DNA from: a virus
Lineage: Duplodnaviria > Heunggongvirae > Uroviricota > Caudoviricetes
Strand: one strand, 5' to 3'
IMG/VR virus record: IMGVR_UViG_3300045988_154477
DNA length: 64,000 bases
The first letter of the stretch is position 1; each line of letters begins with the position of its first letter. Under the pieces are notes generated by a model, which did not search any database, was not told where the DNA came from, and saw only the letters and a program-made list of their open reading frames with translations. Position numbers and translations under genes: made by a program. Shown here piece by piece: positions 28,665 through 31,133 of this stretch.

Positions 28665-30925
28665 AAGAGCTGTGCTATGGATCTGTTTGCAGTGGAATTG
28701 AAGCCGCGAGTATTGCCTGGGAACCGTTGGGTATGCGTCCGGTGTGGTTTGCTGAAATCGAGTCTTTTCCATCTGCCGTTCTTGCGCACCGCTGGCCCCA
28801 TGTCGCCAACCTTGGCGACATGACAAAACTTGCCAAAAAAGTCCTGGCTGGGGAAATCGAATCCCCTGATGTGCTCGTCGGGGGTACGCCTTGTCAGGCA
28901 TTCAGTATCGCGGGCTTACGTGGTGGGCTTGATGATGAACGCGGCGCGCTAACTTTGAAGTATGTGGAGCTTGCAAATGCAATTGACGACAAACGGTCTG
29001 AGTCCTTCCTCAAACCGACAGTTATCGTCTGGGAAAATGTCCCAGGAGTCCTGTCATCGGCAGATAACGCCTTCGGATGTTTCCTTGCCGGATTGGCTGG
29101 AGAAGATGCGCCATTTGAACCAGGTGATCGACCTGAATCAGGAAAAAGTAACGCGTTCTGGCGGTGGGATGGCAAAACCGGTTGCCATGCTCCAAAGTGG
29201 CCGCAGTGTGGTTGTATTTATGGACCGCAGCGAAAGGTGGCCTGGAGAATCCTTGATGCCCAATACTTCGGAGTGGCACAACGACGCCGACGCGTGTTTG
29301 TTGTCGCAAGTGCTCGAACAGACCTCGATCCCGCAACGGTACTTTTTGAGTTCAAAGGCGTGCGCCGGAATATTGCGCCGAGCCGAAAAAAGAAGGAAAT
29401 CGCTTCCGCCATTATTGCAAATGGCGCTGCAATCAGTGGCGAAAGCCTAAATCCATGCCTACACGCTGACATGCCACCCGGTATGAAATCGACGAAAGCC
29501 GTAAACGCTTTCAGGATGGCAGCATTTGGGGAATATATTGACGATGAAACCGCATCGACAGTAAAGGCAAGAGATTTTAAAGATGCCACTGACCTTGCCG
29601 TTTTTAGCAGCACAGGAGCAGGTTTTTGGTCAGAAGGGCATGGTACATTGCGGGCACGTGAGCAAGAAAGCCATGAGCATCTTGTTACATTGGCTTTTCC
29701 TGAGCGTATGAGCGGTACACAACATGCTGCAACTAAGAATACTTCACCATCTCTAATGGCTAAAAATCCAACAGCTGTTTGCTATGAAGTAAGAAACGCA
29801 GAAGTAGCTGTCCGCCGTCTTACCCCTGTCGAATGTGAAAGGCTGCAAGGTTTTCCTGATGGGCATACGTTGATCCCGACGGAAAAGCGTAAAAAAGTTA
29901 ATTCAGATGAACTGGCATATCTTCGCAATCACTATCCAGATTTAAGCGAAGAAGAGGCCGCGATGCTTGCAGCTGACGGACCGCGTTACAAAGCGATCGG
30001 CAATAGTATGGCAATACCAGTAATGCGCTGGATTGGCGATCGGATTACTAAGTCCGTATGTCGGCAGAAAGAAGGAAGTGAAACAAAAGAGCGAAAAGTT
30101 AAACCAGCGGCAGAATTCGAACGGTCCATATTCAAATGGGCTGGTGGAAAATTTGGTGTTCTGGAACAAATCTTTCGCTATTTGCCAGAAGGGAAGCGCC
30201 TGATTGAACCTTTCGTTGGTGGCGGAGCTGTCTTCATGAATGCCGGATACCAGGAAAATCTGCTAAATGATGTGAATGCTGACCTGATTAACTTTTACAA
30301 GACTCTGCAACGCGAGGCGCATTCACTTATCACTCTGGCACATCGTTTCTTCCAGGACTACAACACACAGGAAGGATACCTGGCAGTACGGAATGCGTTT
30401 AACAAACAAGTCTATGATGATTTACATCGCGCAGCGGCGTTTTTGTTCCTGAACCGACATTGTTTTAACGGATTGACGCGTTACAACCAGGCCGGTGAGT
30501 TCAATGTCGGTTATGGGAAGTATAAAACTCCGTATTTCCCATTACAGGAGATGGAAGCCTTCCTCGGTGCGGAAGGGCGGTCTGAGTTTGTATGCGGTGA
30601 TTTTGCAGCGGTGATTGAAGCTGCCGGAGAAGGAGATGTCATCTTTTGCGATCCGCCGTATGAACCGCTTCCAAATACAGAGGGATTCACGAACTATTCC
30701 GGTCATGACTTTAAGTTTGAAGAGCAAAAACGCCTGGTGTCTCTGTTGACGGATGCTCATCGTCGAGGTGCAAAGGTTCTCATTACTAACAGTGGCGCGC
30801 CAAACATCAGAGAGCTTTATCATGACAGTGGCTTCAGAGTGGAACCTCTTTTTGCCAGACGTTCTGTGTCTTGTAAGGGGGACACTCGAGGTGTAGCTCA
30901 TGACGTTTTGGGTATATTGCTCTAA
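28661..30925 (+). CDS. dmt: two-domain DNA methyltransferase (C5-cytosine N-terminal, Dam-like N6-adenine C-terminal), 754 aa
   Basis: C5 motifs [11 protein letters not shown] and ENVPG; Dam-like FVGGGAVF and DPPY. Confidence 0.8.
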
Positions 30926-30943
30926 TAAATTTATTAGTGTAAT
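30916..30943. promoter_or_regulatory. overlapping divergent pair of C1 operators
   Basis: Perfect ATTGCTCTAATAAATTT at 30916-30932 overlapping inverted ATTACACTAATAAATTT (15/17). Confidence 0.65.
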
Positions 30944-31133
30944 ATCGCCTCAATGAATCGTGATTTATAGAGCGATTTAGCTGTTAGCCGCGACAGGCGC
31001 GGCGGTAAGCATGGCTGGGCCTAGTCCTCCCAGACAAACCACCGAGTTGCCAGGTTGACCATGCGCCTAAGTGGCAACTCCGAAGTGCGTTACGAGCTTC
31101 CAGTTTGCCCATCTTCGGGTGGGCGTTTTTTTT
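30944..31133 (+). ncRNA. structured leader / candidate small RNA ending at intrinsic terminator
   Basis: Hairpin AGTTGCCA...TGGCAACT; terminator GCCCA-TCTTCGGG-TGGGC plus T8 at 31107-31133; no ORF. Confidence 0.3.

Follow-up and report, generated by a model that had tools for sequence, protein, structure and literature searches.

The window analysed here is the whole stretch of 64,000 nucleotides (nt) from a virus of the Caudoviricetes (IMG/VR record IMGVR_UViG_3300045988_154477), and the element of interest is the leader that lies between the end of dmt and the tRNA genes upstream of ban (30916–31133). A 1-kb stretch round this leader is 99.8% identical to RCS47 and 99.4% identical to P1, which identifies the window as a P1-type phage. 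From 5′ to 3′, the leader comprises a pair of C1 operators overlapping a promoter, a conserved block of ~115 nt that we call module A, a short linker and an intrinsic terminator. At the equivalent positions the P1 record AF234172 carries the end of dmt, the operator Obanab, the promoters P1ban and P2ban, and a miscellaneous feature, ‘dicF-like region’, which transfers to ~31040–31143 of the window; the terminator is not a listed feature there. Operator, promoter and ‘dicF-like’ label have thus been known in GenBank since the P1 genome was annotated. An earlier note on this DNA missed both these annotations and the similarity to the precursor domain upstream of DicF, rather than to DicF, that is described below.

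C1 binds Op72ab together with its co-repressor Bof, which enhances binding, and thereby represses ban. Op72a (Obana; 30916–30932, plus strand) matches the consensus ATTGCTCTAATAAATTT at 17 of 17 positions, and Op72b (Obanb; 30927–30943, minus strand) is an inverted copy, ATTACACTAATAAATTT, matching at 15 of 17. The two overlap by 6 bp, the dmt stop codon (30923–30925) falls inside Op72a, and the palindrome was recovered too as inverted repeat I2. The earlier note had described a perfect operator overlapped by an inverted 15/17 copy; this description holds, and the coordinates are those of the AF234172 features Obana (protein_bind) and Obanb, annotated there as ‘divalent C1-controlled operator Obanab; corresponds to former Op72ab; controls expression of ban’. 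Across the window there are 13 matches to the C1 operator with at most three mismatches, against 0.32 expected from shuffles. The eleven other operator-like sites lie at 11693, 13356, 27394, 40975, 44599/44648, 46740, 58919, 63193 and 63657/63740, with two further close pairs among them (44599/44648 and 63657/63740).

The sigma-70 promoter P1ban (30917–30945, plus strand), transferred from AF234172, has a −35 hexamer TTGCTC at 30917–30922, a 17-nt spacer and a −10 hexamer TAATAT at 30940–30945, and a second, predicted promoter, P2ban, transfers from the P1 annotation to 30900–30931. The half-operators Op72a and Op72b cover both P1ban hexamers at the dmt/ban junction, and correspond one-to-one with Obana, Obanb and P1ban of P1. 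Sequence, arrangement and position (at the end of dmt, 5′ of trnA, trnT, tciABC, trnI and ban) are the same as in the P1 Op72ab/Pban region. There is no difference at the operator, and the RCS47-like window differs from P1 c1.100 by small changes only; the terminator tail is T8 in the window and T6 in P1 c1.100. Transcription from Pban would start near 30952, giving a primary transcript estimated at ~182 nt to the end of the terminator.

The terminator (31106–31133, plus strand) consists of TGCCCATC-TTCG-GGTGGGCG followed by T8, with an 8-pair stem and UUCG loop at 31106–31125 and the T8 tract at 31126–31133. Its hairpin has a ΔG of approximately −11.3 kcal/mol and an equilibrium probability of 0.99 within the full leader, in line with the strong intrinsic terminator that the earlier note had placed at the end of the leader. 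In a consensus scan of 30400–34000, which includes the start of ban, it was the only plus-strand terminator-like site, and there is no terminator from the dmt stop codon (30925) to 31106. The leader was also rightly placed upstream of the tRNAs and ban, as tRNA-Asn (31599–31674), tRNA-Thr (31677–31752), a third tRNA (33380–33455) and a DnaB-like open reading frame (ORF), ban (33736–35106), are all located downstream. The third tRNA is called tRNA-Met (CAT) by ARAGORN and tRNA-Ile2 (ileX-like) in the P1 record, whose annotation has its CAU anticodon reading Ile after lysidine modification. No plus-strand promoter-like site was called in 30400–34000 by the consensus scan, and the P1 record lists none between the terminator and ban. 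Read-through of the terminator is therefore needed if the tRNAs and ban are to be expressed.

Module A (30973–31087, plus strand) was detected with a covariance model, R1, built from the conserved block, which matches the window once with a score of 99.4 bits (E = 1e-25). The leader aligned to the 100 nt preceding dicF in Qin with a local alignment score of 62 (shuffles, 16.5 ± 2.2), whereas its alignment to the 53-nt DicF scored 14 (shuffles, 14.4 ± 2.3). The homologous sequence is therefore outside mature DicF, on its upstream side. In a multiple alignment, the leader, Qin, mEp460, cdtI and Salmonella phage F1055 share a block of ~115 nt; 3′ of this block the sequences are unrelated, and each ends in a terminator. 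Forty-three lambdoid phage records and at least 120 IMG/VR contigs contain this block over ~95–115 nt, and ~500 P1-like plasmids carry module A, while R1 matched prophages of Escherichia albertii, E. ruysiae, Shigella, Citrobacter, Trabulsiella, Erwinia tracheiphila, Izhakiella and Serratia symbiotica at 93–148 bits. In lambdoid phages the domain lies in the leftward early operon, after a cI/DicA-type repressor and before dicB-type genes.

The domain contains four helices and a pseudoknot. HP0 pairs 30988–30992 with 30998–31002, and a junction helix (CGGT/ACCG) pairs 31003–31006 with 31041–31044. HP1 (31015–31019/31029–31033) is variable in length and sequence, and HP2 (31046–31055/31065–31078) has a ~19-nt terminal region that is largely invariant. 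In the pseudoknot, GCATGG (31009–31014) pairs with CCATGC (31059–31064) in the apical loop of HP2. RNAalifold recovers the helices independently, in agreement with manual inspection. In alignment A3, which was fitted to R1, the structure has 30 pairs with 96.8% of cells paired, and 10 of the 30 pairs show compensatory double changes, compared with 2.4 ± 1.1 in column shuffles (none of 500 shuffles reached this count) and 0–2 in slid controls. The MAFFT alignment A2 gave covariation in the same direction, with weaker numbers. Between P1 and Qin the sequence of HP1 differs with pairing kept (CUGGG/CCCAG and CGGGG/CCCCG), and HP2 changes likewise from GUUGCCA/UGGCAAC to GUUGUCA/UGACAAC. One pseudoknot position is C-G in P1 and U-A in Qin and is paired in every sequence, and in P7-like copies a U-A pair of the junction helix has become C-G. 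The G-U pairs in the conservation pattern are strand-specific, which places the constraint on the plus-strand RNA.

No known Rfam 15 family matched inside module A or the 3′ linker (30944–31105) at E ≤ 1. A chance-level match to tmRNA_permuted (31121–31227; 26.1 bits, gathering score 47; E = 0.013) overlaps the 3′ half of the terminator only. The domain is a covarying, pseudoknotted RNA that is absent from Rfam 15 and described here for the first time.

Faubladier in 1990 reportedly described, from the Qin dicBF operon, a DicF species of 190 nt. Two DicF species are known in E. coli, one of 190 nt and a 53-nt RNase E product (PMC10448788; PMC9438474). The 190-nt species, stable and with a 5′ end made by RNase III, builds up once RNase E is inactivated (Ragunathan 2023, PMC10448788), and upstream of dicF in E. 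coli there is an Hfq-enriched interval (PMC4152368). Counting 190 nt back from the 3′ end of DicF leads to ~746–765 of the Qin locus (L002), and the R1 match starts at 748 of the same locus. In the Qin fold, a long imperfect hairpin lies just upstream, with its 3′ arm ending exactly at the 5′ edge of the domain, and this modelled hairpin is consistent with an RNase III site. By these comparisons, module A corresponds to the 5′ part of the longer species.

The comparison extends to the architecture of the whole RNA. Like the predicted P1 transcript (~182 nt), the 190-nt Qin species has a ~115-nt 5′ domain, a 3′ segment and a terminator, and both lie upstream of genes that need read-through. They would differ in how the 5′ end arises, by initiation at a repressor-controlled promoter in P1 (our proposal) and by RNase III cutting a long hairpin in the operon transcript in Qin, and they differ in the 3′ effector, which in Qin is unrelated to the P1 3′ part; the latter is not DicF. 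Mature DicF (RF00039) resembles the P1 leader in its relative position and in having a terminator hairpin with a U-tail, but the leader has no sequence or model match to it. We found no paper on a P1 dicF-like RNA.

Between module A and the terminator the window carries a P1-lineage-specific linker, CGAAGTGCGTTACGAGCTTCCAGTT (31081–31105, plus strand), where the 5′ half of DicF sits in Qin, and this linker is a possible seed region. P1 and P7-like plasmids have the same 25 nt, E. albertii has them in altered form, and they are missing from an E. marmotae plasmid, in which ~17 unrelated nt separate the domain from the terminator. A hairpin of ΔG ≤ −9 kcal/mol with a T-run follows within 150 nt in 78 of 78 distinct downstream segments. 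The Rfam DicF model scores 76.7 bits in Qin, and DicF is absent from the window and from the cdtI, F1055, Erwinia, Trabulsiella and Serratia types, so that as far as these comparisons reach DicF is just one 3′ variant after the conserved domain. In phage D6 the terminator and the sequence beyond it are the same as in the window, and module A is missing. Taken with the swapped 3′ segments, this indicates that the domain behaves as a cassette and that the terminator is independent of it. What the alignments add to the existing annotation is homology in the 5′ domain of the precursor, excluding DicF, with 3′ modules that are interchangeable across P1-like and lambdoid phages.

Further variation is seen round the terminator. 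In D6 (L207, 800–1500) and the E. marmotae plasmid (L208, 500–600), a different, ~700-nt non-coding stretch precedes the shared terminator; it holds pieces (GTTGCGGTAAT... and CCCCGCTGCAACG) similar to the sequences that flank the domain. P1-like elements have a recombination hot spot at the ban leader. In distant homologues (Erwinia tracheiphila, L189, 4713–4823; also L183, L202, L161 and L005), the terminator hairpin encloses AGGAG and an ATG or GTG, and an ORF of ~36 amino acids runs from this start through the terminator, with two copies differing mostly at third codon positions. This terminator-overlapping ORF may be a small gene with its start masked by the terminator.

The explanation we favour, with some confidence, is that the leader encodes a small RNA under C1 control and that its terminator also restricts read-through into the tRNAs, the tci genes and ban. 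In a lysogen, C1 (with Bof) on Op72ab would block Pban. Upon C1 inactivation, RNA polymerase would start near 30952 and transcribe the ~182-nt leader, and most complexes would stop at 31106–31133, freeing a small structured RNA. The fraction reading through, presumably a partial one, would supply tRNA-Asn, tRNA-Thr, tciABC, tRNA-Ile and the Ban helicase, and transcripts from the upstream dmt operon would end at the same terminator. The released RNA would carry the pseudoknotted multi-hairpin 5′ domain and a lineage-specific 3′ segment, and would end in a terminator hairpin and U-tail, the usual form of an Hfq-binding 3′ end. As Pban lies directly before the domain, the primary transcript would be built like the 190-nt species with no need for 5′ processing. 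Homology with the E. coli RNA suggests that the P1 RNA accumulates, and any trans-acting role, if there is one, would differ from that of DicF. On present evidence the leader is probably a phage small RNA rather than a new kind of element. The earlier note had offered a repressor-controlled small RNA or an attenuator, and this pair of readings is supported by the known C1 operator of ban, the homology to the 190-nt DicF 5′ domain and the requirement for read-through, with the small RNA itself predicted.

In a preprint reporting P1vir RNA-seq, trnA, ban and dbn were over-induced in a Δhfq host, and hrdC and dmt were under-induced (bioRxiv 10.64898/2025.12.28.696737). This pattern is compatible with an effect of Hfq at the leader, without demonstrating one.

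Several points weigh against a C1-controlled small RNA. P1ban matches the consensus at 7 of 12 positions and was not called by a stricter consensus promoter scan, and both the start near 30952 and the length of ~182 nt depend on the annotated position of P1ban; a literature search found no P1 transcript data for the leader. The minimum free energy of the leader, −65 kcal/mol, is just modestly better than that of shuffles (z = −1.85; 7 of 200 shuffles fold equally well). Hence the ‘stable hairpins’ of the earlier note are weak on energy alone and are much more strongly supported by covariation. The covariation counts, in turn, come from an alignment fitted to the model and, since most homologues are close relatives, include inherited changes. 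With only ~17 nt in the E. marmotae copy, a seed-bearing 3′ segment is not universal. In terms of targets, RNAduplex predictions against ftsZ (−80 to +40) were no better for the leader than for shuffled RNA, a comparison in which real DicF is itself barely separated, and the longest stretches elsewhere in the window that could pair with the 3′ linker, the HP2 loop or the 5′ strand were at chance level.

These results bear on an alternative that we consider unlikely, in which the site acts as an attenuator and operon boundary alone, ending the uhr-hrdC-dmt operon and damping Pban, with a functionless RNA and a domain that is a passenger from recombination with lambdoid prophages. The lack of any terminator between the dmt stop codon and 31106, the D6 arrangement of terminator and downstream sequence without module A, the clearly mosaic nature of the region, and the failure to find a target at the ftsZ start or in the rest of the window all agree with it. 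However, loops have stayed invariant and pairs have been compensated across P1-like plasmids and prophages of six genera, which would not happen to a passenger, and the homologous E. coli RNA accumulates and lies in an Hfq-enriched interval (PMC10448788; PMC4152368).

More tentatively, and in a similarly doubtful range, the ~100-nt domain (30987–31080) could represent an undescribed, autonomous class of structured RNA of temperate phages. Its pseudoknotted junction and invariant loops would bind a host component (for example Hfq, RNase E, RNA polymerase or a metabolite), and it would serve as a portable 5′ scaffold for swapped 3′ effectors, DicF included. In P1 it would then place the ban operon's host-directed output directly under C1.

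It is less probable still that the domain acts in cis to set read-through of the terminator, either as a put-like RNA that modifies RNA polymerase or as a riboswitch-like sensor. Every lineage has a structured domain, a variable segment and a terminator before genes that need read-through, the invariant unpaired nucleotides suggest a host partner, and in the 195-nt Qin fold GGCGG of the domain pairs with the 3′ arm of the terminator, replacing the terminator hairpin. Against this, D6 uses the same terminator without the domain, the spacing to the terminator ranges from ~17 to >100 nt, and no conserved alternative pairing was found. A terminator/antiterminator switch in P1 was rejected, as the leader fold showed no competing structure and the terminator hairpin stands at 0.99. 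A processive function would have little to act on, given that 30400–34000 holds a single plus-strand terminator-like site, and the terminated products are abundant in E. coli (PMC10448788).

The HK022 put RNAs (PMC9378689) share with the P1 leader a multi-stem structure, an early repressor-controlled phage promoter, a position before a terminator and the lack of a dedicated phage protein; any likeness is functional only, and speculative. They comprise two stems in ~70 nt, compared with ~100 nt with a junction and pseudoknot in P1, and they suppress termination, whereas terminated products accumulate in E. coli and D6 manages without the domain. No Rfam riboswitch matched, and R1 found no match in the HK022 immunity region (L006, 23000–31000; best 8.3 bits, E ~1, in a one-way search of R1 against the HK022 sequence). 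Two related candidates were rejected. A nut-like boxA/boxB reading of HP0 failed by inspection, as the loops ACAGG and AAAUGG are not GNRA-like; we know of no N protein in P1. Reading GGCGGTAAG(Y)ATGG as an RfaH ops element needs a 1-nt insertion, and where ops must have T, P7-like copies have C. This T-to-C change is compensated by A-to-G in the pairing partner, and the GGCGGTAAG(Y)ATGG stretch is therefore a helix strand.

A true DicF orthologue blocking ftsZ translation, as the GenBank label ‘dicF-like’ implies, is very improbable. Its position after the shared domain matches that of dicF, and P1 has division-related genes nearby, e.g. tciA. Nevertheless, RF00039 gave no match at E ≤ 1 in 30500–34000 and none at gathering score in the whole window (48-bit threshold; Qin control, 76.7), and against the 53-nt DicF the leader aligns no better than shuffled sequence, so that orthology is largely refuted at the sequence level. 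The predicted duplex at the ftsZ start is no better than that of shuffled RNA, from which real DicF is itself barely separated, and the sole Shine–Dalgarno-complementary CUCCG varies among P1 isolates (ACTCCG, ACGCCG and ACACCG).

The earlier note saw no ORF in the leader, which is roughly true: mechanical ORFs of 27–113 amino acids overlap it (31055–31180 and 31071–31154 on the plus strand; 30984–31148 and 31090–31431 on the minus strand), and none has a Pfam match. It is hardly credible that the leader encodes a small protein, even with ORFs of 27–54 amino acids and ‘hypothetical protein’ annotations in some P1-like records (JL22 and SJ46), because besides the lack of Pfam matches the HP1 indels are not multiples of three, the helices are kept through G-U and compensatory changes, and the ORFs are not conserved in lambdoid homologues. 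A leader peptide from the ATG at 31011 was likewise rejected, its frame being broken by HP1 indels among homologues.

P1 is a standard laboratory phage whose ban operon gives a replicative helicase and tRNAs. If the favoured explanation is right, a terminated small RNA as the first product of Pban changes how early expression after C1 inactivation is read. The DicF locus is also redefined, with the 5′ domain of the 190-nt species, rather than the 53-nt effector, as the conserved unit. A domain common to otherwise unrelated temperate phages, with exchangeable 3′ ends, offers a testable case of modular small RNA evolution, and one already backed by E. coli expression and Hfq-association data.

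The region round the tRNAs holds further RNA-like features. Four long imperfect hairpins (31310–31400, 31754–31842, 31960–32040 and 32449–32532), with ΔG values of −35 to −47 kcal/mol, are made of the repeats GCACAACAGGTAAGGG ... CCCTTACCGTTGTG(ATGAATGC). These motifs also flank lambdoid DicF-type loci and resemble the RNase III-type hairpin before the Qin domain, and the four hairpins are probably processing sites round the tRNAs. Relative to P1 c1.100, the window has an extra 196-nt repeat unit (31829–32024) with the direct repeat CCCTTACCGTTGTGATGAA at its boundaries. The unit lies within a minus-strand ORF that is called plp in the P1 annotation, which makes plp and upl doubtful as genes and suggests that the plp/upl region is non-coding RNA.

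Directly after tRNA-Thr, at ~31805–31817, a hairpin contains a perfect T-arm-like GGGTTCGAATCCC; D6 has a tRNA-Ser at the equivalent place, and the element may therefore be a decayed tRNA. Known P1 RNAs reached Rfam gathering scores elsewhere in the window, namely the immI a1/b1 targets with the C4 antisense RNA and the sok antitoxin RNA (11770–11822, 11890–11975 and 15426–15600). Just upstream of tciA, 32527–32646 gave a sub-threshold Rfam match to STnc100 (39.2 bits; gathering score 47), and the motif GTGATGCGGTGAATGCGGCTAAGCGCACGCGG of this site also follows the terminator of DicF in lambdoid prophages. STnc100 belongs with PasD to one family of prophage small RNAs (bioRxiv 10.64898/2026.05.13.724894).

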